NCBI GenBank assembly: GCA_017551515.1
Contig: JAFZLK010000052.1
Span: forward strand, 7,864 to 71,863
Origin: Bacteroidales bacterium
GTDB taxonomy: Bacteria > Bacteroidota > Bacteroidia > Bacteroidales > ML635J-15
Reading direction: 5' to 3'
Length of the DNA: 64,000 nt
Shown here: positions 6,070 through 64,000 of the stretch, piece after piece
Layout: the number at the start of each line of letters is the position of its first letter
Numbering within the stretch: the stretch's first letter is position 1
Program-made: the position numbers and the translations under genes
The notes under the pieces: model-generated
What the model was told of the DNA's origin: nothing
Database searches by the model: none
Seen by the model: the letters and a program-made list of their open reading frames with translations, nothing else

Positions 6070-6345
6070 AGAATTTTTTTGTTTCTAGGTTTCTACGGCT
6101 TCGCCGTTTCTAAGTTTAACTTCGTTGAGGGCTTCGCCGTTCAAGTTGTTTTTGGCTGTTTGATGGTTCCTTTTTTTGAGCATAGCGAAAAAACATTCGT
6201 GAAATTCGTGTTATTGGCTACACCGAGCTAAAGGTTCGTGGTTATTCCGCTGTTCGAACCTGTGAGAACATTTTTGCATCTTGTCGGGAAATCGTCTATC
6301 GTAAATCCCAATTCGTAAATAAAATTGTATTTTTGCAAAAATTTT
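6070..6345. repeat. Mosaic intergenic repeat block (GTTTC heptads plus shared 25- and 28-nt modules plus TCGTAAAT units)
   Basis: GTTTCTAGGTTTCTACGGCTTCGCCGTTTCTAAGTTT is present. The stretch 6116-6143 is the reverse complement of 63058-63085 (27/28 identical). The stretch 6213-6237 matches 50024-50048 (24/25). Confidence 0.75.
6328..6335 (+). promoter_or_regulatory. -7 box (TATTTTTG) upstream of tsaB
   Basis: It lies 14 nt upstream of the ATG at 6350. Confidence 0.45.
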
Positions 6346-12732: not shown

Positions 12733-13368
12733 TTAAAAGTTTCTAATCGCTCTTACATTTGCAGAGGTTCCTTTTGGCGTTGCAATGGCAGCTCCGTCAT
12801 AATTTAGCACCCAAGCACTTTCTACGCCGTAATTTTCTTCGGTGCATGACCAGTATTGCCGTCCGTTCATCTTACTGCTGTTGTCAATTACATCTAATGC
12901 TGCATTTACTTCGGTCATATTGCCGTATAGAACAGCAAGTTGTCCCATTGCTGGCAGATACCAGCCTGTTCCGCATTGCATGGAGGCATTTACTGCAGTT
13001 GCATAATCTGCTAGATCCCAACTCAGTCCTTGTGCAGTACGCACAATAGAATCGCAACGAACAGAGCCAATGGTATCGGTATTTACCAATTGGGGATTGT
13101 TGTTGTAGCTGTTCAGGTAGCAAAGGCTTCCTCCATCGCCCCATGTCATGGTTCCCAAACCTGCATCATTAAGGGCAAGTGCCCAACCGTGCTGCTGCGA
13201 ATTGTCAACAAAAAATACCACACCAAGGGCGGTTTTGCCACTTGCGGCAAAGTCTTCTGGCGACACCGTTGTGTTGTCGGTGCAATAAATGTCGCCCACA
13301 TGAACGTGTTCCTGCGCAAAAACCGCAAGGCTCACGAGCATCATTAAAATTGTAACAAGTTGTCTCAT
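12733..13368 (-). CDS. Small secreted DUF1566-like (Lcl C-terminal-like) protein
   Basis: It has a signal peptide (LVSLAVFAQE) and the signature GWYLPAMGQLAVLY...YWSCTE...NVRAIRNF. Its stop lies 11 nt upstream of the start of the 1,573-aa gene, so co-transcription is likely. Confidence 0.7.
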   Translation of the reverse strand: MRQLVTILMMLVSLAVFAQEHVHVGDIYCTDNTTVSPEDFAASGKTALGVVFFVDNSQQHGWALALNDAGLGTMTWGDGGSLCYLNSYNNNPQLVNTDTIGSVRCDSIVRTAQGLSWDLADYATAVNASMQCGTGWYLPAMGQLAVLYGNMTEVNAALDVIDNSSKMNGRQYWSCTEENYGVESAWVLNYDGAAIATPKGTSANVRAIRNF

Positions 13369-13392
13369 AATATATTATCTTTTAACTATTTG

Positions 13393-13400
13393 CAAAAATA
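13393..13400 (-). promoter_or_regulatory. -7 box (TATTTTTG on minus strand) for the DUF1566 operon
   Basis: caaaaata on the plus strand lies 24 nt upstream of the ATG at 13368. Confidence 0.45.
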
Positions 13401-13414
13401 TAAAATTATCCAAT

Positions 13415-13455
13415 ATATATGACAACTGTAAACACTTTTTCGTTGTCTGAGGAAA
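13415..13455 (-). promoter_or_regulatory. Conserved ~41-nt upstream motif (copy 1), shared with 62685-62726
   Basis: About 33/41 positions are identical in a hand alignment. The core on the plus strand is TGACAA-N12-TTTTCGTTG[CT]CTGA[AG]GAAA. Confidence 0.5.
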
Positions 13456-13490
13456 GAAAAAAATTGGGGCAGTATGAATACCAGCCCCAA
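13452..13490 (-). terminator. Intrinsic terminator after the FAH-family gene
   Basis: On the minus strand, TTGGGGC-13 nt-GCCCCAA is followed by TTTTTTTC. Confidence 0.7.
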
Positions 13491-13496
13491 ATTTTA

Positions 13497-14108
13497 TCAT
13501 TTCACCTTCATGTCGATTAATTTTAAATCGCCCATGTAGGCTTTCAGTTTATCGTTGATTTCGAGTTTTCCAACACCCAAAGGAGTTCCTGTATAAATTA
13601 GGTCTCCAATTTTCAGAGTCATAAATTTCGAAACATGCTCAATGATGTCATCAATGCTGAAAAGCATGTCGGAAGTATTGCCGTGCTGTACCTCTATGTC
13701 GTTTCGTTGCAAGCGGAAATCAATGTTGTTCTTGTCGGGGAGTTCATCAAGCGAAACGAATTCCGAAAGCACAGCCGAACCATCAAACGCCTTGCAAATC
13801 TCCCACGGTAGTCCGCGCTGTCGACATTCGTTCTGCAGGTCACGGGCGGTAAGGTCAAGTCCAAGAGCCACAGCATCGTAGTAGCGATATGCAAATTTCT
13901 TCTGTATGTGCTTTCCCAGACGGCATATACGATACACAACCTCCACTTCGTATTGCAGGTCGTTGGTCCAGTCGGGGATGAAGAAAACCTTGTTGCTCTT
14001 CAGTAGTGAAGAATCGGGCTTCATGAAGAATATAGGCGCTTCTGGGTACGGAAGGTTAAGTTCCGCAATGTGCGCCTTGTAGTTCATTCCTATGCAGATA
14101 ATTTTCAT
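13497..14108 (-). CDS. Fumarylacetoacetate hydrolase (FAH) family protein
   Basis: 203 aa. MKIICIGMNYKAHIAEL and the ..GTPLGVG.. region are typical of the FAH/2-keto-4-pentenoate hydratase family. Confidence 0.85.
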   Translation of the reverse strand: MKIICIGMNYKAHIAELNLPYPEAPIFFMKPDSSLLKSNKVFFIPDWTNDLQYEVEVVYRICRLGKHIQKKFAYRYYDAVALGLDLTARDLQNECRQRGLPWEICKAFDGSAVLSEFVSLDELPDKNNIDFRLQRNDIEVQHGNTSDMLFSIDDIIEHVSKFMTLKIGDLIYTGTPLGVGKLEINDKLKAYMGDLKLIDMKVK

Positions 14109-15320: not shown

Positions 15321-15408
15321 AAATTTTAAGTTTCTTGGTTTCTAAGTTTCTTGTTTCTATGTTTTCGAGTTGTTTGAGGTTATTTATATGTTTAATAGTT
15401 GGATGTAC
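15321..15408. repeat. GAAAC-heptad array (minus-strand sense) filling the mfd/amidohydrolase spacer
   Basis: The minus strand reads ..CATAGAAACAAGAAACTTAGAAACCAAGAAACTTAAAATTT-ATG. This is the same word family as 49805-50209 and 62815-63121. Confidence 0.7.
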
Positions 15409-43662: not shown

Positions 43663-43869
43663 AAGTGAAAAATTTTCAAATTCGAGGTCAAATATAATAA
43701 AAAAATGTTAATAGCAAAATATTATTTGACGGTTTTAGATAAAAATGATTTATAAACGCAGTAAATGCTAATTTGTACTTTGAAACAGATAATATTTTTG
43801 ACTCCCTGAATGTTATTGCTGTTTGCTATAAATAACGGTATTTATTTAGTGAAAAATCCTTTTTTTCAG

Positions 43870-43890
43870 ATCTTGAAACAAGTTCAAGAT
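43870..43890. repeat. Hairpin module ATCTTGAA-ACAAG-TTCAAGAT followed by GACA (member of a dispersed family)
   Basis: It has a perfect 8-bp stem. The same loop and flank occur with a different but still complementary stem at 62998-63018, and a degraded copy lies at about 50044-50068. Confidence 0.65.
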
Positions 43891-43937
43891 GACAAAAAAA
43901 GGAGAGTGTTTGTATATTTAGCGGACAAAAGTTTTTG

Positions 43938-49804: not shown

Positions 49805-50209
49805 TTGAGAAAATTGTTTCAAGTTTCTGGTTTCTGAGTTTCTGGTTTCTAGTTGTTTGAAGTTGTTTAAGGTAGTTTGAAATGGTTTTAATAAAACAAC
49901 CATAAACGGCTTTAGCCATTGAAACAGCGAAGCGTAGAAATTTAGAAACTAGAAACATATAAACGGCGTCAGCCATAGAAACTCAGAAACGAGAAACATA
50001 GAAACAAAAAAACGCGGAATCAGATTGGCTACGCCGAGCTAAAGGTTCTGAAACAAGTCCAGCATGACATTCCGCGTTTTTTAGAAACAGCGAAGCGTAG
50101 AAATTTAGGAACTAGAAACATATAAACGGCGTAGCCACAGAAACAGCGAAGCGTAGAAACTTAGAAACGTGAAACTTATAAACGGCGTTAGCCAAAGAAA
50201 CTAAACTTT
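49805..50209. repeat. 405-nt repeat-laden clpP-clpX spacer (GTTTC heptads, then GAAAC heptads, 54-57-nt tandem/dispersed units, 14-bp perfect inverted repeat)
   Basis: The unit 49921-49975 recurs at 50084-50137 with 1 substitution and 1 indel, and a diverged third copy lies at 50138-50194. The inverted repeat is AAAAAACGCGGAAT (50007-50020) / ATTCCGCGTTTTTT (50069-50082). Confidence 0.85.
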
Positions 50210-51427
50210 ATGGACAAAAACGATAGATGCTCGCTATGCGGTCGCCCGCGCAAGGATGTTGGAATCCTGTTTCAGGGTGTCAACGGAAATGTTTGCGATG
50301 ACTGCATAAGACGAGGATACGAAATATTGAAAGAGGAAGAGCAGTTTAAGAAAGAAAAGCCGACTAAGGCAATTAAACTTAAGAAGCCTAAAGAGATAAA
50401 AGCATTCCTCGATGACTATGTAATTGGTCAGGACTTTGCAAAGAAGGTGCTGTCGGTGGCCGTATACAACCACTACAAGCGTATAAGTCAGGAGAAAAAC
50501 GATGTTGACATTGAAAAATCGAACATAATAATGGTTGGCGAGACTGGTACAGGCAAAACATTGCTGGCTAAGACTATAGCCAAGATGCTCAATGTGCCTT
50601 TCGCTATCGTTGATGCAACGGTTCTTACCGAAGCAGGTTATGTAGGCGAGGACATCGAAAGTCTTCTTACACGACTTTTGCAGGCAGCCGACTACGATGT
50701 GGCATCGGCGGAACAGGGCATTGTTTTCATAGATGAGATTGACAAGATTGCCCGCAAAGGCGACAATCCGAGCATTACCCGTGATGTGTCGGGCGAAGGC
50801 GTTCAGCAGGGTCTTTTGAAACTCCTCGAAGGATCGATTGTAAATGTTCCCCCGCAGGGCGGACGCAAGCATCCAGAGCAGAAGATGATTGCCGTTGATA
50901 CAAAGAACATTCTGTTTATCTGCGGTGGTGCGTTCGAGGGACTTGACAAAATCATCGCCCGTCGTATGAACACACAGGTAGTAGGTTACGGAACGCAGAA
51001 GAACATAGAGAAAATCGACAGCAAGAATATGTTGCAGTATGTCATTCCCGAGGACATTCGCAAGTTCGGTCTTATCCCCGAAATTGTTGGTCGTCTGCCA
51101 GTGCTTGCCTACCTAAATCCACTTGACCGCGAAGCATTGAGAATGATACTTACTGAACCGAAGAACTCCATTGTAAACCAGTACATAAAGTTGTTCAAGA
51201 TTGATGGAATCGACATTAAGTTCGAGGAGGAAGCCCTGAATTATATCGTTGACCAGGCAATATCGTTCAAACTTGGTGCTCGTGGACTGCGTTCTATTTG
51301 CGAGTCGATAATGCTTGAGGCCATGTTTGAAATGCCATCTGAAAACAAGAAGTCGTTTACGGTGACTAAGGAGTACGCCGAAAGCAAACTCGACAAGACT
51401 GCCGCTATAAAGTTTAGAAATGCGTAA
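50210..51427 (+). CDS. clpX: ATP-dependent Clp protease ATP-binding subunit ClpX
   Basis: It has an N-terminal zinc finger (CSLCGR...CDDC), Walker A (GETGTGKT) and Walker B (IVFIDEIDK). Confidence 0.95.
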
Positions 51428-58185: not shown

Positions 58186-61100
58186 TTATTTCAACAACAT
58201 TATATTCCCCTTCTTCGTCCTTATGCTGCCATCGTACATTTCTGCTTCCACATAATAGGAATATGTGTCCATGTTTTGCACTATTCCGCTGATTGTTCCG
58301 TCCCAGCCGGTATGCAGGTCGTTGGTAAAGAAAACCTCTTCGCCCCAGCGGTTGTAAATACGGAACTGGCGCAACTCCTTTATGCCAAGCCCTCGCACAT
58401 AAACTACGCTATTTTCGTCATCGCTCAATGGAGTGAACGCACCTGGGACATCAAGCGTATATTTAATGTCAACATCGACATGAATGTTGATATTTGTTTC
58501 GTAGCAGCCGAGCGTATCTTTCAGGATAAGTGTGAAATCGGTATTTTCGAGCGGATAAAGCAACAAAGTGTCGCAATTTCCTGCAAAAGCGTATTCCGCA
58601 GGCGAAATGTAGCAGTCAAGCGCTTCCATGTCGGAAAATACCAATGTCATAGCCGTATCACCTATATTTATGGTAAACGACTGCTCGTCAGTTTCTGCCT
58701 CAAATGGCTGAAACACATCAATTGCGACCGAATCCGTAGTCATGCACATTTTTTCATTAAAAGCATCAACATAGTAAATGGTTGCCTCGGTTGGAGAAAT
58801 AATTTGACTTTGTGTGCTGTTGCCGATAGGAGGATGCCAGTAGTAGGAATTTCCGCCATATACAGAAATGTGAGCCTCACTGCCTTTGCAAATCAAAGTG
58901 TCGCCAATGGTATATACTTCGGGATTTTTGTAAACCAGATATTCATGCGAAATGCTGTCGATACAGCCAAGCGAATCGGTAATTGCAAGTGAAACCACAT
59001 ATAACGAGTCCGTCTGCGTGGAAGAATTTGTCCATATCACTGTGCCTTCTGAGTATGTTTCACCGTTCACATACCAGCGTTGTTCCACGCCGTTGGTTCC
59101 TGAATATGCTAAATCTCCTTCCAATGGAGAACAAGTACCTTCGAGGATAGCATTTCCGCTCAAATCCAAAAGGCTAAAGTCAGAATTTATCCTATACACA
59201 TAAACCTGTTCGGTCAAGTCAATCATGCAGTTGCCATTTCGTATCGAAAGCGTCACCGGGAAATATCCCGATTCGGGAACATAGCCGTACTGGTGCGTAA
59301 CTTCCTCTGTATAATAGTTGTATCCGCCACCTACAACCCACATGAAACTTTCAACATCAACTGCATCTGTCATTGAGAAATGCACTTCGCCGCCTGCGCA
59401 AACTATAGTGTCGCTCAACGAAATGTTTGCCTCGGGACCAGTAATCGCCACACTATGCGACATTGAGGCGCTGCAACCGCTGTATGTTGTTACTTCAAGA
59501 TTAATAGTGTAGTTGCCAGGTGCTGTATATAAGTATTGCGGATTTGCCACATGTAAAATGTCACCGTTGCCCATGTCCCAGTGGTAGCGCAGGTTGACAT
59601 AATCGGGTTCAGTAACTATCGCAGTATTTATTGTCGGGCTTACAGGATAGCAGTTGTATGCCGAACTGTCTATGGTAAAATCTGCCGAGACAATTCTTTC
59701 AATGTTTATGCAATCTTCGCATGGAAGAGTATCGCTACACACTGCTCCGCCATCGCCACGTACCGATACAATATGTGTAAACGAATAGATGCCCGCCTGT
59801 TCGTAAAGGTGTGTAAGTGTGCTGTTTGTTCCCGAAATCACAGTGCCGTCACCAAAATCCCATTCGTGCCAAATGAAATTATCTGACTCGTTCGATACAA
59901 ATGTCTGTATTGTGCCAAGACAAACGTTGTAACTAAAATCTACATAGGCGTATGGGAAATCAAGGACTTTCACCCTATTGCGGAATGTTTCAGAATACTG
60001 GCAGCCGTGCCAAGTCATAATGCTTAAGGAAACATCGTAAATGCCTGCTTCTTCGAAAGTATGGGTTACATTTTCGCCCGATACATTTTCAGTGCCGTCG
60101 CCGAAGTTCCATGTCGCAGAGTAAATTGCATCGTCGGTGTTGGTGATATTGTGAAATTCGAATGTGGCTGGATTGCAACCTACGACAAGATTTGTCGGTG
60201 ATATTGTGGAATGTGGGTCAACTACATACAACTGCTTGGTAAATACCGAAATGCATCCATCGAACTGGCGGGCGTAAGCAATTACTTCGTAGTTGCCTCC
60301 GCTTTCGTATGTGTAGCGTGAGTCGGTGATTCCGTTGATTTGAATCCATTCGAGTGCATTGATTGGCAAACCTCTGCCTTCCCAGTCGAAAGCAACTTCG
60401 GCAAAGGCTGGTGCGTTAAGAACTACTGCAGTAAGCCTGTTCCCAAGACACAATGTGTCGGTTGAAATTTCCCAGTTAAATATAGGCGGTCTAATGGCGC
60501 AAACGATTTCCTGCACGAATTCGCAATCCGATCCATCATTATGTGCGGTAAGTTTACAATGGTAGTTGCCGTAGTCGGGAAATACAAACGAAATCGAATC
60601 GGCGGTTGAATGATTGACATTCATAAGAATGTTGTTGTTATCGGTGTTCCATATCAACCATTCCCAGTATTCCGCGCCAAGATTTTCGGTAATTTTGAAC
60701 GAATAAACAAAGGGCGCGTTGCAGTCGGAATACGAAGCAAGATGTACGATTGGCGGTTTCACATAAACGCTGTCCCAGAGATATACTGACGACAGGCAGT
60801 TACGGTATTCAACCGTGAATCCCACCTTGTTCCAGCCGGTGTCAACCTTGAATGAATAAGGAGTGTATTCGGCTCCTGTATTAACATCCCAGTTCTTACC
60901 TGCAGAATTTATTACGAAGAAGTAGTTGTAGTCGGCGGAACTTCCGCTCATCGAATTGTATAGATACACTACATCCGTTGGACAAATAGTATCGCCAGGA
61001 ATGTAATCGTGCATATCATTTGTTACTCCGAATTGTTCTGGTGAAACTGGAGTGCCTGTAATTATGCTTGCCAGCGGTCTGTCATCGAGTATGCTAGTGG

Positions 61101-62661
61101 CGGTACAGCCGGAAGTATCGGTAATCGTAAGTGTTGGGGGGAAGATGCCAAATTCGGAATATTCATGTAGTACCGATGATGTTGTAGTATGGGTAGATGT
61201 GCCATCACCGAAATCCCAAAAGAAATCCACAACTGCCGAATTGCTTGTGTGTTCTGGGTCATTGTAAAGTCCAACTGTTGCAGGTACGCAGTCGCCTGCC
61301 GTAGTGGAATGAAGTGATGCGTCGGGCTGGTTGACAACAATTTCCGTTCCTGTATATCTTGATACGCATCCGCCTGGGGATGTTACTGTTAGCGTAGGTG
61401 TAAATCTGCCGTTCTGCGAATACGAATGCATCGTAATCCCATCAAAGCCAATGTAGCTGTCATCAAAATTGTATGAATAAGTAAGGTTTTCGCCGATAGA
61501 GGTGCTTATAAACCTCACTTCGAAAGGGTAGGTGCATGAAAACAGGTCCTCGGGTTCGGTGCGGAACGATGCATGAACGTCAACAACATTGACATTAAAA
61601 ACCTGCGTTTGCCTGCATGGTCCATTGGGGTCAATAGTGAATGTCACTGAATAGTTTCCCTCCTGCGAATAAGAGTGGCTTGCCTCTGTTCCCGACTGTA
61701 CAGGTGTTCCGTCGCCAAAGTTCCAGTAGCAGGTAATGTCATCGTCAACATCGCTGCGGAAAAGAAATGGTATATTTAGGCACATTTCGGCAGGAACTGT
61801 GCATGTTGGTGTTAGTGTTCCTATTACTACCATGTTGTTTTTGCGCACTACCGACTGGCAACCATACGAATCAACCACAGTTAGCGATACATTATAGCTG
61901 CCAGTATTGTCGTATGTATGCGATGGATTGTCCTCGTTGCTTTCTGAGCCATCGCCAAAATCCCATGTTGCCGTGTAGGGTCCGCCAAGTCCTACATCGG
62001 TGGATATTTCCGATGAGAAATTGACCTCGTGCGGAGCCACGCACCATTGAGCATCGTTGGCAGAAATAGACACGTTTGGTCGCTTCGATAGCGTCAGCAT
62101 CTGCGAGTGGTATTCATCGCGACAACCGTTGGCATCGGTTACCTCGAGCGACACCGTGAATATTCCAGGCGATGTGTATGTATGTGCCCTGTTGCGTCCT
62201 TGAGCCGAAACGCCATCACCGAAATACCATAGCCAGCTTGTAATTTCTGCATCGCCTTCGGTAGCACTGCTTTTGAACAAATAGCCTCTTGAGACGCAAC
62301 CAACAATGGAACTGTCGTTGAACGATGCTGTAGGTCCGTTGAATACTACAATTTCGTGGCTGTCGGTGGCTGTCTGTCCGCCACTTTCTATTGTAACGGA
62401 AATTGTGTATCGTCCTGGTGAAAGATAGGAAAATGTAGGTTCTGCAAGTACCGACATATCACCGTTTCCCGATGACCACGAATACGACACTTCGTCTGTA
62501 GCTCCGCTCACATTGCACCCAAAAGCGAGAATTTGTGGTGCACAGCCTTCGAAACTGCCGGTTATCGAAACCGACAATTGTGCTACCGATGTAAAGTGTA
62601 ACAGTAAGGCAACGAGTAATAGTGGTATGTATTTTAGTATCTTGAGAATATCTCTTTTCAT
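58186..62661 (-). CDS. 1,491-aa PKD-repeat protein with T9SS type-B C-terminal domain, paralogue 2
   Basis: It is collinear with 53628-58082 along its whole length. The C-terminus is GAFTPLSDDENS..FRIYNRWGEEVFF..WDG..DTYSYYVEAEMYDGSIRTKKGNIMLLK. Confidence 0.8.
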   Translation of the reverse strand: MKRDILKILKYIPLLLVALLLHFTSVAQLSVSITGSFEGCAPQILAFGCNVSGATDEVSYSWSSGNGDMSVLAEPTFSYLSPGRYTISVTIESGGQTATDSHEIVVFNGPTASFNDSSIVGCVSRGYLFKSSATEGDAEITSWLWYFGDGVSAQGRNRAHTYTSPGIFTVSLEVTDANGCRDEYHSQMLTLSKRPNVSISANDAQWCVAPHEVNFSSEISTDVGLGGPYTATWDFGDGSESNEDNPSHTYDNTGSYNVSLTVVDSYGCQSVVRKNNMVVIGTLTPTCTVPAEMCLNIPFLFRSDVDDDITCYWNFGDGTPVQSGTEASHSYSQEGNYSVTFTIDPNGPCRQTQVFNVNVVDVHASFRTEPEDLFSCTYPFEVRFISTSIGENLTYSYNFDDSYIGFDGITMHSYSQNGRFTPTLTVTSPGGCVSRYTGTEIVVNQPDASLHSTTAGDCVPATVGLYNDPEHTSNSAVVDFFWDFGDGTSTHTTTSSVLHEYSEFGIFPPTLTITDTSGCTATSILDDRPLASIITGTPVSPEQFGVTNDMHDYIPGDTICPTDVVYLYNSMSGSSADYNYFFVINSAGKNWDVNTGAEYTPYSFKVDTGWNKVGFTVEYRNCLSSVYLWDSVYVKPPIVHLASYSDCNAPFVYSFKITENLGAEYWEWLIWNTDNNNILMNVNHSTADSISFVFPDYGNYHCKLTAHNDGSDCEFVQEIVCAIRPPIFNWEISTDTLCLGNRLTAVVLNAPAFAEVAFDWEGRGLPINALEWIQINGITDSRYTYESGGNYEVIAYARQFDGCISVFTKQLYVVDPHSTISPTNLVVGCNPATFEFHNITNTDDAIYSATWNFGDGTENVSGENVTHTFEEAGIYDVSLSIMTWHGCQYSETFRNRVKVLDFPYAYVDFSYNVCLGTIQTFVSNESDNFIWHEWDFGDGTVISGTNSTLTHLYEQAGIYSFTHIVSVRGDGGAVCSDTLPCEDCINIERIVSADFTIDSSAYNCYPVSPTINTAIVTEPDYVNLRYHWDMGNGDILHVANPQYLYTAPGNYTINLEVTTYSGCSASMSHSVAITGPEANISLSDTIVCAGGEVHFSMTDAVDVESFMWVVGGGYNYYTEEVTHQYGYVPESGYFPVTLSIRNGNCMIDLTEQVYVYRINSDFSLLDLSGNAILEGTCSPLEGDLAYSGTNGVEQRWYVNGETYSEGTVIWTNSSTQTDSLYVVSLAITDSLGCIDSISHEYLVYKNPEVYTIGDTLICKGSEAHISVYGGNSYYWHPPIGNSTQSQIISPTEATIYYVDAFNEKMCMTTDSVAIDVFQPFEAETDEQSFTINIGDTAMTLVFSDMEALDCYISPAEYAFAGNCDTLLLYPLENTDFTLILKDTLGCYETNINIHVDVDIKYTLDVPGAFTPLSDDENSVVYVRGLGIKELRQFRIYNRWGEEVFFTNDLHTGWDGTISGIVQNMDTYSYYVEAEMYDGSIRTKKGNIMLLK

Positions 62662-62684
62662 GTCACGATATTTTACAATTCATA

Positions 62685-62726
62685 ATATTATGACAATTAA
62701 AAATACATTTTCGTTGCCTGAAGAAA
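62685..62726 (-). promoter_or_regulatory. Conserved ~41-nt upstream motif (copy 2), overlapping a perfect 12-bp hairpin (62701-62734)
   Basis: The hairpin is AAATACATTTTC-gttgcctgaa-GAAAATGTATTT. The motif aligns with 13415-13455 (about 33/41). Confidence 0.5.
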
Positions 62727-62814
62727 ATGTATTTAACTGTAATTTAACATAATTTTAAGAGATGGGGGTGTTGTTCTGCTAGACATCCTTTTTTGAATTT
62801 AAGTATAGACGCAA

Positions 62815-63121
62815 TTCGTTGAGCCTCAGTGGTTTCAAATAATATGAAATCCAGAAACAGCGCAGCCATTCAAACCTAGAAACAGCGTAGCGTATAAACG
62901 CCGAAGCCGTAGAAACTTAGAAACAGCGTAGCGTATAAACGCCGTAGGCATAGAAACGTGAAACCTTCAAACGGCGTAGCCATTCATTCGTCAACAGACC
63001 CTGAAACAAGTTCAGGGTGACATTAGGGAGAGTGCCTAGAAATGGGCGACAGCCCACTGAACGGCAAAGCCCTCAACGAAGTTAACCCAGAAACTTATAA
63101 ACTGGCGCAAGCCCACACTGC
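62815..63121. repeat. Mosaic intergenic repeat block (GAAAC heptads, 27-nt perfect direct repeat, hairpin module, 28-nt shared module)
   Basis: TAGAAACAGCGTAGCGTATAAACGCCG occurs at 62877-62903 and 62918-62944. The hairpin lies at 62998-63018. The stretch 63058-63085 is the reverse complement of 6116-6143 (27/28). Confidence 0.85.
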
Positions 63122-64000
63122 CTATCTTATGAGCATTATGTTTCCTTTTTTGCTTTGTACGCTTCCGTCGAACATTTCTGCTTCAACATAATAAGAATAT
63201 GTATCGCTGTTCTGCACCTTTCCGTTTACTGTTCCGTCCCAGCCTGTATGCAGGTCGTCGGTAAAGAATACTTCTTCGCCCCAGCGGTTGTAAATGCGGA
63301 ATTGCAATAGTTGTTTAATGCCAAGTCCTCGTGCATAGACTATATTATTGCCGTCGTTTTCGCTAAGAGGTGTGAAAGCTCCAGGTACATCAAGTGTAAA
63401 TATCTTTTCAACATCAATATGTATGTCGAACTTGTGGTCGGGGCAGAAAGTAGTATCCTTCATAACAAGCACATAGTCGGTGCTTTCATCGGGGAAGAAT
63501 ACTATTGTGTCGCAACCGCTCATAGTGAGGTTTTCCTCAGGTGTAATATAGCATTCGATGGCATTGTTGTCGTAGGTGATTAAAGCCATAGCAGTATCGC
63601 CCATATTTATCTTGAAATATTCGTCCGACAATGATACTTCGTATGTTGGAATTACAATCACAGTTATTGAATCGGCGATTGAACACCTGTGTTCAGTGTA
63701 GGCTTCAACATGGTAAACCGTTGTTTCTTCGGGTATAACACTTTGGTTAGGAAGACTGTCGTCGATTGGGGTGTCCCAATAGTAAGAATATGCATCCATT
63801 GCCGACATATTTACCGTATCGCCGTAGCATATGGTAGTGTCGTTGCTTACTCTAAGTGTAGGCATATGGTAAACATAATACTGGTGCGAAACGCTGTCGG
63901 TGCAACCAAGTGTATCGGTGGCAATAAGCTTAACGGTGAACAGTGAGTCAACCTGCAATGAATTGTTCTGCCAATTTACATTTTCTACAGTCTGCTGGTT
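63122..64000 (-). CDS. Type-B CTD PKD-family protein, paralogue 3 (C-terminal part only; the gene continues beyond the right edge)
   Basis: The frame stays open from 63958 to nt 64000 (..NQQTVENVNWQNNS-LQVDS..), and the sequence aligns with the equivalent region of paralogues 1 and 2. The C-terminus is GAFTPLSENDGNN..FRIYNRWGEEVFF..KKGNIMLIR. Confidence 0.75.
   Translation of the reverse strand, partial: NQQTVENVNWQNNSLQVDSLFTVKLIATDTLGCTDSVSHQYYVYHMPTLRVSNDTTICYGDTVNMSAMDAYSYYWDTPIDDSLPNQSVIPEETTVYHVEAYTEHRCSIADSITVIVIPTYEVSLSDEYFKINMGDTAMALITYDNNAIECYITPEENLTMSGCDTIVFFPDESTDYVLVMKDTTFCPDHKFDIHIDVEKIFTLDVPGAFTPLSENDGNNIVYARGLGIKQLLQFRIYNRWGEEVFFTDDLHTGWDGTVNGKVQNSDTYSYYVEAEMFDGSVQSKKGNIMLIR

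Follow-up and report, generated by a model that had tools for sequence, protein, structure and literature searches.

The locus and related spacers

In a stretch of 64,000 nucleotides from a Bacteroidales bacterium (the window: C57:7864-71863 of genome G000, an assembly of 3.55 Mb with 41.8% GC in 119 contigs), several intergenic spacers are built from short words with a GAAAC core, interleaved with very small hairpins and a few longer modules. A preliminary description of the window had joined such spacers near 6, 15, 50 and 63 kb into one dispersed mosaic family, and these GAAAC arrays are analysed here at the scale of the genome and its relatives. The spacer flagged in that description, 62662-63121, separates two minus-strand paralogues of about 1,490 aa, both PKD-rich and with a CHU_C type IX secretion domain. 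It is bordered by the stop codon of the upstream paralogue (63122-63124, TAG on the reverse complement) and by the downstream paralogue (58186-62661), which starts at 62661.

What does this spacer consist of? Upstream of the paralogue 58186-62661 lies an AT-rich, repeat-free part of 174 nt (62662-62835, minus strand), which holds a perfect 12-nt inverted repeat (62701-62712 and 62723-62734). The array of GAAAC words and mini-hairpins proper occupies 62845-62986; its GAAAC strand is the plus strand, antisense to both flanking genes. Tandem Repeats Finder reports in it a 41-nt period of 2.5 copies at 62864-62964, and the 27-nt direct repeat noticed earlier (62877-62903 and 62918-62944) is identical in its two copies. 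The remainder is also written on the plus strand. It comprises a hairpin-module copy, CAGAC-CC-TGAAACAAGTTCA-GG-GTGAC (62995-63021), which belongs to a separate, phylum-wide family inside the mosaic; the unit TAGAAAT-GGGC-GACA-GCCC-AC, a hairpin whose GNNA loop is closed by a stem of 4 bp (63037-63057); a "head" module that we call M1, TGAACGGCAAAGCCCTCAACGAAGTTAACC, with the two mini-hairpins GGC-AAA-GCC and AAC-GAA-GTT (63058-63087); and the final words CAGAAAC and TTATAAAC with a GGC-GCAA-GCC hairpin (63088-63121). The GAAAC-strand 3' end directly abuts the stop codon of the upstream paralogue. On its gene strand, the 460-nt spacer has a single TAnnTTTG box (a -7 box), TAGGTTTG. This box belongs to the array (62878-62871, minus strand), where it arises from a CAAAC variant word 210 nt upstream of the paralogue ATG; the AT-rich 174 nt that adjoin the paralogue have no TAnnTTTG box on the gene strand.

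The same elements recur at the other loci of the window. At 6082-6143 (minus strand), GAAAC words and an M1 copy lie upstream of, and in the sense direction to, an epimerase gene (5102-6040/6064, minus strand), and the earlier reading of 63058-63085 as the reverse complement of 6116-6143 holds with 27/28 matches. A second module, M2 (ATTGGCTACACCGAGCTAAAGGTTC), is found at 6213-6237 on the plus strand and agrees with 50024-50048 in 24/25 positions, again as first described. Near 15 kb, four sense words (15330-15357, minus strand) fill the spacer after the mfd stop codon and end 9 nt before the ATG of an amidohydrolase gene (15320). The spacer between clpP and clpX has two arms. Its left arm, 49816-49895, consists of GTTTC-oriented words (GAAAC strand minus, antisense) that begin 11 nt past the clpP stop codon; its right arm, 49921-50209, carries sense GAAAC arrays on the plus strand up to the clpX ATG at 50210, and is broken at about 50006-50083 by a hairpin-module copy with an A-run/T-run outer stem together with an M2 insert. 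One further hairpin-module copy, at 43857-43903 on the plus strand, has its own outer stem, tcctttttt / aaaaaagga, and no GAAAC array. The hairpin word is thus present at 62998 and 43870 and degraded at 50044, as the preliminary description had it.

Words, hairpins and modules of the GAAAC arrays

Genes were called by a longest-ORF (open reading frame) heuristic, which gave 2,545 ORFs and 89% coding sequence and reproduced the genes of the window. An array was defined as at least three GAAAC words with gaps of at most 25 nt. Under this definition G000 has 177 arrays at 137 loci, with 959 words and 10.9 kb in total. There are 114 arrays with at least four words, compared with 0 such arrays per Mb of shuffled sequence. 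Most of the 21 arrays classed as coding are runs of 3-5 words inside real genes, and 15 arrays stand at contig ends. The family that was proposed from four places in the window is therefore real, and about 130 more loci belong to it; the matches are not limited to a few spots, and their position is strongly biased.

The words take two forms. In the first, GAAAC is followed by a short linker (TTA, ATA, CCA, CA, TCA, AATTA, CTA or TA), so that the real word is N(1-2)AGAAAC; the linker AATTA gives a 10-nt word, and the others give words of 7-8 nt. In the second, GAAAC is followed by a mini-hairpin and then by ATA, ACA or ATT, which makes a unit of 16-18 nt. GGCGAAGCC, GCCGAAGGC and GCGAAGC are among the hairpin units. 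The repeat unit is not homogeneous: 260 different inter-word spacers occur, and hairpin units, M1 and M2 are interleaved with the words.

The hairpins follow a strict grammar. In 216/343 long units (63%) a loop of 3-5 nt is closed by a perfect stem of 3 bp or more, compared with 14% after shuffling, and the main stem types are GGC/GCC (105), GCC/GGC (49) and GGGC/GCCC (46). The loop begins with G and ends with A in 161/216 (GAA, GTCA, GTA, GCA, GCCA, GTTA, GTAA, GCAA), the chief exception being TTTA, and closing pair and loop together read C-GNA-G or C-GNNA-G in almost every hairpin unit. About 55 more units are GCGNAGC, a form with 2 bp only. Note that 201 of the 216 perfect stems start right after GAAAC, so that AAAC immediately precedes the stem; GAAAC stands on both sides of every hairpin, and the units abut one another head to tail. 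The two halves of the stem change places among units, yet on the GAAAC strand the loop remains G..A; the hairpin is therefore a maintained, strand-specific feature. C-GNA-G is the motif of the extraordinarily stable single-strand DNA mini-hairpins d(GCGAAGC), which are much less stable as RNA.

The module M1 (AGAACGGCGAAGCCCTCAACGAAGTTAAAC) has the two mini-hairpins GGC-GAA-GCC and AAC-GAA-GTT, with a longer insert in the first loop of some variants. There are 61 copies of its exact 18-mer core in G000. In the listed copies M1 sits among GAAAC words of the same strand, and it is often followed by M2, there as CCTTTAGCTCGGCGTAAGCCAAAC, the reverse complement of the block at 6213 and 50024. The preliminary description regarded the modules as shuffled in orientation between loci. 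This part did not survive: modules and GAAAC words keep a fixed mutual orientation, what flips is the entire array, and the flipping obeys a rule tied to the flanking genes.

Could the arrays be small-RNA genes, or degenerate relatives of clustered regularly interspaced short palindromic repeats (CRISPR), in which a hairpin is joined to an 8-nt handle (ATTGAAAC or ATAGAAAC)? The combination "hairpin + AT(A/T)GAAAC" does resemble the 3' part of type I CRISPR repeats, and the flagged stretch folds better than its shuffles, if moderately so only (z-scores -2.0 to -3.1). However, there are no unique spacers between the units, and a crude scan of G000 (20-mers recurring at 45-95 nt; cas genes were not searched) found tandem repeats and no CRISPR array. 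No TAnnTTTG box occurs on the GAAAC strand of the arrays. The whole window gave 0 matches to Rfam at gathering thresholds, and permissive E-value scans of two spacers returned miRNA and frameshift-element noise far below threshold. We regard an origin as small-RNA genes or CRISPR-like arrays as extremely improbable. Neither Rfam nor the literature searched contained a known element matching the family, and in that literature we found no function, enzyme or published description of GAAAC arrays.

Orientation of the arrays relative to genes

Is there any rule in the placement of the arrays? Where both flanking genes run in the same direction, sense arrays outnumber antisense arrays by 76 to 15 (p=5e-11); counted by spacer (n=67), 51 have sense arrays only, 13 antisense arrays only and 3 both. 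The GAAAC-strand 3' end is the gene-proximal end in 100/141 arrays (p=7e-7), in all four contexts, and within 30 nt of a gene it is the 3' end that is found in 46 arrays and the 5' end in 6. Two kinds of placement stand out. On the one hand, 25 sense arrays end at most 30 nt from a start codon, often 6-17 nt, as in ...cacagaaacatagaaacATG; the right arm of the clpP-clpX spacer and the arrays at 6 kb and 15 kb are of this sense-before-gene kind. On the other hand, 10 of the 15 antisense arrays lie at most 30 nt behind a stop codon, and to this kind belong the flagged array and the left arm of the clpP-clpX spacer. The polarity also appears in a second species, G010, of which 800 kb were taken blindly: 12 arrays are sense and none antisense, and the 3' end is nearer to the gene in 14/18. 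A replication-strand origin of the polarity was considered and rejected, since orientation shows no bias relative to local GC skew (62:55). The polarity therefore follows transcription or translation, not replication.

The two strands of the arrays differ sharply in content. In 11.5 kb of arrays, ATG occurs 16 times on the GAAAC strand (1.4/kb) and 273 times on the GTTTC strand, the level in co-oriented spacers being 14.6/kb. For TAG the numbers are 591 on the GAAAC strand and 87 on the GTTTC strand. The GTTTC strand, whose ATGs come from GCCATAG, reads as hairpin + GTTTCT.

This asymmetry enters into a rival explanation, in which the arrays are functional RNA leaders: A-rich, unstructured, ATG-free and stop-rich landing pads that would keep adjacent cistrons uncoupled and bring bS1, or some other RNA-binding protein, to starts without Shine-Dalgarno pairing, the antisense copies acting as terminators or 3'-end protectors. 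Start regions in G000 have an A-patch at -14 to -11, an A at -3 and a depletion of ATG just upstream, the same signature that was shown experimentally and genomically for Flavobacterium johnsoniae (PMC6847099). The last AGAAAC of the start-abutting sense arrays falls near this A-patch, and the position of most antisense arrays close behind stop codons would suit a role at 3' ends. In addition, words have been kept before the amidohydrolase ATG in three species and before the clpX ATG in five, although the remainder of the spacer has turned over. However, GAAAC is not enriched before the starts of array-less genes (ratio 1.12); a general initiation motif was rejected on this ground. Close relatives have unrelated word families or short spacers at the same clpP-clpX junction, pattern hits vary between 6 and 178 among sister species, the words have entered a coding region as well, and neither strand of the arrays is promoter-rich. 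A dedicated leader or terminator function is, in our judgement, doubtful.

Do the arrays serve as a reservoir of promoters? The GTTTC strand contains 167 near-boxes TAnnTTTC and only 15 true TAnnTTTG boxes, which is at or below the intergenic background, and this candidate was rejected. A TAnnTTTG box between the upstream stop codon and the array is found for only 4/23 start-abutting arrays, so most of them would have to be co-transcribed with the upstream gene.

Another rival explanation takes the arrays as DNA platforms for a nucleoid or regulatory protein that reads GAAAC. A fixed pentamer core, closely spaced and present at more than 130 loci, speaks for such a protein. But the word spacing (7, 8, 10 and 16-18 nt) has no helical phase, the polarity follows gene direction, the strand-specific content of ATG and TAG points to a filter at the RNA level, and the content of the spacers is not conserved between species. 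A binding platform is accordingly very unlikely.

Turnover and spread

How do the arrays change? Higher-order tandem duplications, with periods of 14-158 nt, are present in 35/68 array loci of at least 60 nt and in 1/68 length-matched pieces of ordinary spacer. The preliminary description had judged simple slippage a poor fit, and this needs correction, because half of the longer arrays, the flagged one included, hold recent multi-word tandem duplications. Loci also have sequence in common: exact blocks of at least 30 nt are common to another locus in 72 loci, and blocks of at least 40 nt in 26. A six-unit block of 76 nt is 100% identical between C77 and C98. In this pair, the only one that was aligned, the identical stretch breaks off at word cores within the arrays and has no inverted termini. 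[quoted passage not shown]

Turnover is more rapid in array spacers than in ordinary ones. Over its full length, the ordinary spacer 13368-13497 can be aligned, with few differences by eye, between G000 and two relatives whose genes are about 82-89% identical at the DNA level, whereas the array spacers clpP-clpX, mfd-amidohydrolase and epimerase-tsaB are unalignable between species and are filled with different word families. For example, the clpP-clpX spacer has GAAAC arrays in five species, a REP-like palindrome (REP, repetitive extragenic palindromic sequence) with ATCAAAT words in five others, and AGACTGNN octads in one (G011). The junction measures less than about 30 nt in six array-negative congeners and about 30-80 nt in five. 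Throughout the clade, spacers tend to be built from words. As a side observation, the clpP-clpX spacers of G020, G003, G043, G010 and G018 (L004, L002, L008, L009 and L010) have a palindrome with a 12-bp stem, tgtagcgacgcgccatggcacgtcgctaca, flanked by runs of ATTGACAATGAATAATGGATAAT and ATCAAATCATCGAAT words. Three contigs with an identical ClpX are 99.97-100% identical to the window and represent the same strain, so they are uninformative on polymorphism.

The words have also entered a gene. The gene C27:28697-30364 (556 aa) has an ordinary N-terminus and C-terminus, and its central region carries, in frame, GAAAC words, ATCTTCAAATC words, an acagacgcaaaatattgcgtctcaa hairpin and an M2-like block, which encode low-complexity repeats of the PETQKLETRNIETEEPESSNLQIFESSN type. 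The presence of in-frame words inside this gene indicates that the spread is a process at the DNA level, independent of any intergenic role.

Distribution among relatives

GAAAC words and M1 are restricted to a sub-genus clade. Every one of the 11 sampled congeners with a ClpX at least 92% identical to that of G000 has the AGAAAC family (6 to 178 pattern hits), and it was absent both from the 16 sampled congeners with a full-length ClpX of at most 78% identity and from 16 further families in the order. In five species with gene identities of about 82-85%, the 37-nt copies of M1 show no difference at all (100% identity), and no M1 was found in 150 genomes sampled across the phylum; M1 as a phylum-wide element was rejected on this count. 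Some genomes without the AGAAAC family carry other arrays instead, such as (CGAAACN)n heptads, (ACGCAAAG)3 units or AGTACTTA words, and lineage-specific word arrays recur across the order. We observed (CGAAACN)n heptad arrays in G022, G015 and G039; and G032, which belongs to a different family within the order (L094-L101), gave about 46 pattern hits for a dispersed but unrelated unit, TTTCACGCAAAGACGCAAAGACGCAAAG followed by a T-run.

A separate hairpin module and an IS110 element

The hairpin module at 62995-63021 had been counted among the modules of the family. It is in fact a separate element, as its phyletic range differs: the exact 21-mer is found in 32/151 Bacteroidota genomes and 20/89 genera, with no hit for the reversed control, compared with one sub-genus clade for the GAAAC arrays. 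The module CTGAAACAAGTTCAG has the form CAGAT-NN-TGAAACAAGTTCA-NN-ATGAC, its copies in the window being those already given at 62995-63021, 43857-43903 and 50006-50083; 88 copies of its 13-nt core TGAAACAAGTTCA occur in G000 at up to one mismatch. There is covariation in the inner NN pairs (GC/GC 22, CC/GG 11, CT/AG 6, TC/GA 5; 50/56 are paired). A copy-specific outer stem of 7-8 bp is present in 21/56 copies, often as an A-run and a T-run like a two-way terminator, and 45 of the 71 intergenic copies face the stop codon of a gene. The word has no Rfam match and was found neither in the literature searched nor in the supplements of PMC6006769.

Seven contigs of G000 (C14, C15, C51, C61, C69, C71 and C115) end 83-136 nt into one multicopy sequence, and this sequence begins exactly after ...TGAAACAAGTTCAGCATGA. 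A full copy in a relative (L109:1511-2485 of G043) encodes an IS110-family DEDD transposase (PF01548 + PF02371). The hairpin module is either the target of the IS110 element or a portion of that element's end. IS621 and ISPpu9/10, which belong to the IS110 family, reportedly target REPs. The likeness concerns the hairpin module only, in that seven IS110 copies start at one fixed position beside the hairpin; it differs in that the hairpin here is spread across the phylum Bacteroidota, while the known targets are proteobacterial REPs. The hairpin module with its fixed IS110 start may offer a natural target for studying site choice of the IS110 type in Bacteroidota.

Candidate enzymes and neighbouring genes

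Is there an enzyme that could move the units? The genome has seven homologues of Y1_Tnp (PF01797), which speak for a rival explanation in which the units are ultra-small mobile elements of single-strand DNA, moved by an HUH nuclease like the REP-associated tyrosine transposase (RAYT) or by another putative nuclease. Such a nuclease would recognise the C-GNA-G hairpin and insert 3' of GAAAC; as the unit itself ends in GAAAC, the insertion would remake the target and so build head-to-tail arrays. Several of the features described above would be expected of this process: the hairpins match the very stable d(C-GNA-G) motif of Hirao and Yoshizawa, their loops are strand-specific, all of them are bracketed by GAAAC, M1 copies are identical across species, and presence or absence is patchy within the genus. 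However, none of the seven Y1 genes lies within 1.5 kb of any array, and the three that have repeat flanks have longer REP palindromes of their own; a link of RAYT or REPtron type to the GAAAC arrays was rejected for this reason. Moreover, insertion of the IS200/IS605 type would leave the GC-skew bias that is lacking here, the block aligned between two loci has no defined termini, and known REPs have much longer stems (7-20 bp, PMC6006769) than the 3-4 bp seen here. We hold the mobile-element explanation to be unlikely, and quite improbable in its specific version, where "hairpin + AYAGAAAC" is a self-targeting insertion unit of 13-18 nt in single-strand DNA, inserted 3' of GAAAC by a putative enzyme that reads C-GNA-G. 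If true, this would be the smallest mobile DNA unit described in bacteria.

The three RAYT-like Y1 genes are worth a separate remark. C78:14720-15214, C112:2102-2581 and C10:11666-12211 sit among their own longer palindromes of REP type, which are gcccgttagggc / accccgtaggggt, gacctcggagaggtc and cggcgtaggctccagcctacgtcg, respectively, in classical REPtron arrangements. At C16:24591-25484, the two largest arrays, with 18 words each, flank in a divergent, REPtron-like manner a gene for a 130-aa four-helix-bundle protein (PF05635, 23S rRNA intervening sequence or Avd-like). This association was rejected as well, the other strong copy, C119:131293-131583, not being flanked.

Interpretation

What kind of sequence are the GAAAC arrays, then? 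On balance we favour, with moderate confidence, that they are a clade-specific, non-coding, self-expanding DNA satellite, which has grown by tandem duplication, exchanges patches between loci, and is kept only in orientations that are harmless to expression. In this scenario the mini-hairpins, stable in single-strand DNA, and the microhomology of AGAAAC would drive slippage, template switching or gene conversion between arrays; the array sequence would spread as selfish or neutral DNA; and gene expression would filter the arrays that survive. Bacteroidota do without the Shine-Dalgarno sequence, and the A-rich, ATG-free, TAG-rich GAAAC strand may be harmless there as a 5' leader or intercistronic spacer. 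The complementary strand, rich in ATG and reading hairpin + GUUUCU, would add upstream AUGs and hairpin-U stretches, and would be tolerated only just behind stop codons. The flagged region can be read in the same way: 62845-63121 lies antisense behind the stop codon of a PKD paralogue, and the AT-rich 174 nt before the next paralogue would have been left alone. A filter fits better than a dedicated signal, because few of the start-abutting arrays have a box upstream, the clpP-clpX spacer is short in array-free congeners, GAAAC is not an initiation motif, and the arrays are poor in promoters.

Some points that weigh against the satellite interpretation should be noticed. The gene calls come from the ORF heuristic only. 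The orientation filter is derived from counts, and an insertion bias could give the same counts. The strict C-GNA-G rule with its strand-specific loops could reflect recognition by a protein. The identity of M1 across five species suggests constraint or an active copying enzyme rather than drift. Finally, antisense arrays are enriched about tenfold next to stop codons relative to their overall share, and they could have a positive role in termination or 3'-end protection. The preliminary view of a mosaic family of no known function was right in substance, the corrections concerning slippage, the orientation of modules and the membership of the hairpin module.

The family has some practical meaning as well. 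The gene-pointing polarity, together with an ATG-free and stop-rich sense strand, amounts to a natural read-out of which 5' leader content is permitted where there is no Shine-Dalgarno pairing. In metagenome-assembled genomes of rumen and gut Bacteroidales, the arrays give rise to spurious ORFs, long "intergenic" leaders and broken contigs, and they could serve as strain markers.

Comparison with known systems

Bacteria seldom carry dispersed short repeats, and of such repeats, to our knowledge, the REP/RAYT class alone has been linked to a mechanism. The GAAAC family resembles the REP-based systems, including bacterial interspersed mosaic elements and REPIN-RAYT (PMC3733652, PMC6006769, PMC2817692), in that short palindromic units occur in high copy number, are intergenic and mosaic, and are specific to a clade. 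By definition, the hairpin of a REP has GT[AG]G (or CGTC) at its foot (PMC6006769, PMC3733652), and its basal stem comprises 7-20 paired nucleotides (PMC6006769). The arrays have stems of 3-4 bp, in some units the 2-bp GCGNAGC, and no GT[AG]G/CGTC tag, the stems nearly always following GAAAC directly. REPs come as alternating units or inverted doublets, while the units here run head to tail, both orientations being present in only 3/67 co-oriented spacers. There is no RAYT gene beside the arrays; and published REPs lie mainly downstream of genes, while the arrays are mostly upstream, in the sense direction and up to start codons. The family thus departs from REPs in four of the five features that were compared, sharing with them the high-copy, intergenic, mosaic character, and yet it fills about 140 spacers and breaks the assembly.

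BrickBuilt of Porphyromonas gingivalis, whose 23-nt unit is accompanied by leader and tail subunits that have inverted-repeat ends, as well as by promoter elements (PMC4596501), is similar in its Bacteroidales host, its strictly intergenic position, its spacer-less tandem short units, its limited host range and its few dozen copies. The GAAAC arrays differ from it: no terminal inverted repeats were present in the locus pair aligned, TAnnTTTG boxes are absent from the GAAAC strand, and on the GTTTC strand their number is at or below the background level.

The mini-hairpins themselves resemble the d(GCGAAGC) type: a C:G pair closes a GNA or GNNA loop, and the roughly 55 two-base-pair units are literally GCGNAGC. 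This type, attributed to Hirao and Yoshizawa, is reportedly a physico-chemical motif of phage origins and a few promoters, not a dispersed repeat family.

The short tandemly repeated repetitive (STRR) sequences of heterocystous cyanobacteria, which Mazel et al. are said to have described in 1990, reportedly form arrays of homogeneous heptamers. The likeness lies in the tandem 7-nt words with a fixed core, present in many intergenic spacers of one lineage and with no assigned function; the arrays here differ in that words alternate with mini-hairpins, M1 and M2. We know of no gene-pointing polarity reported for STRR sequences. Head-to-tail short units with a fixed core, which stand at many intergenic loci and grow by tandem duplication, give the GAAAC arrays this feature of a satellite. 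What the present analysis adds to the picture of the family is the polarity rule, the asymmetry in strand content, the evidence for turnover and patch copying, the phyletic limits, and the link of the hairpin module to IS110.

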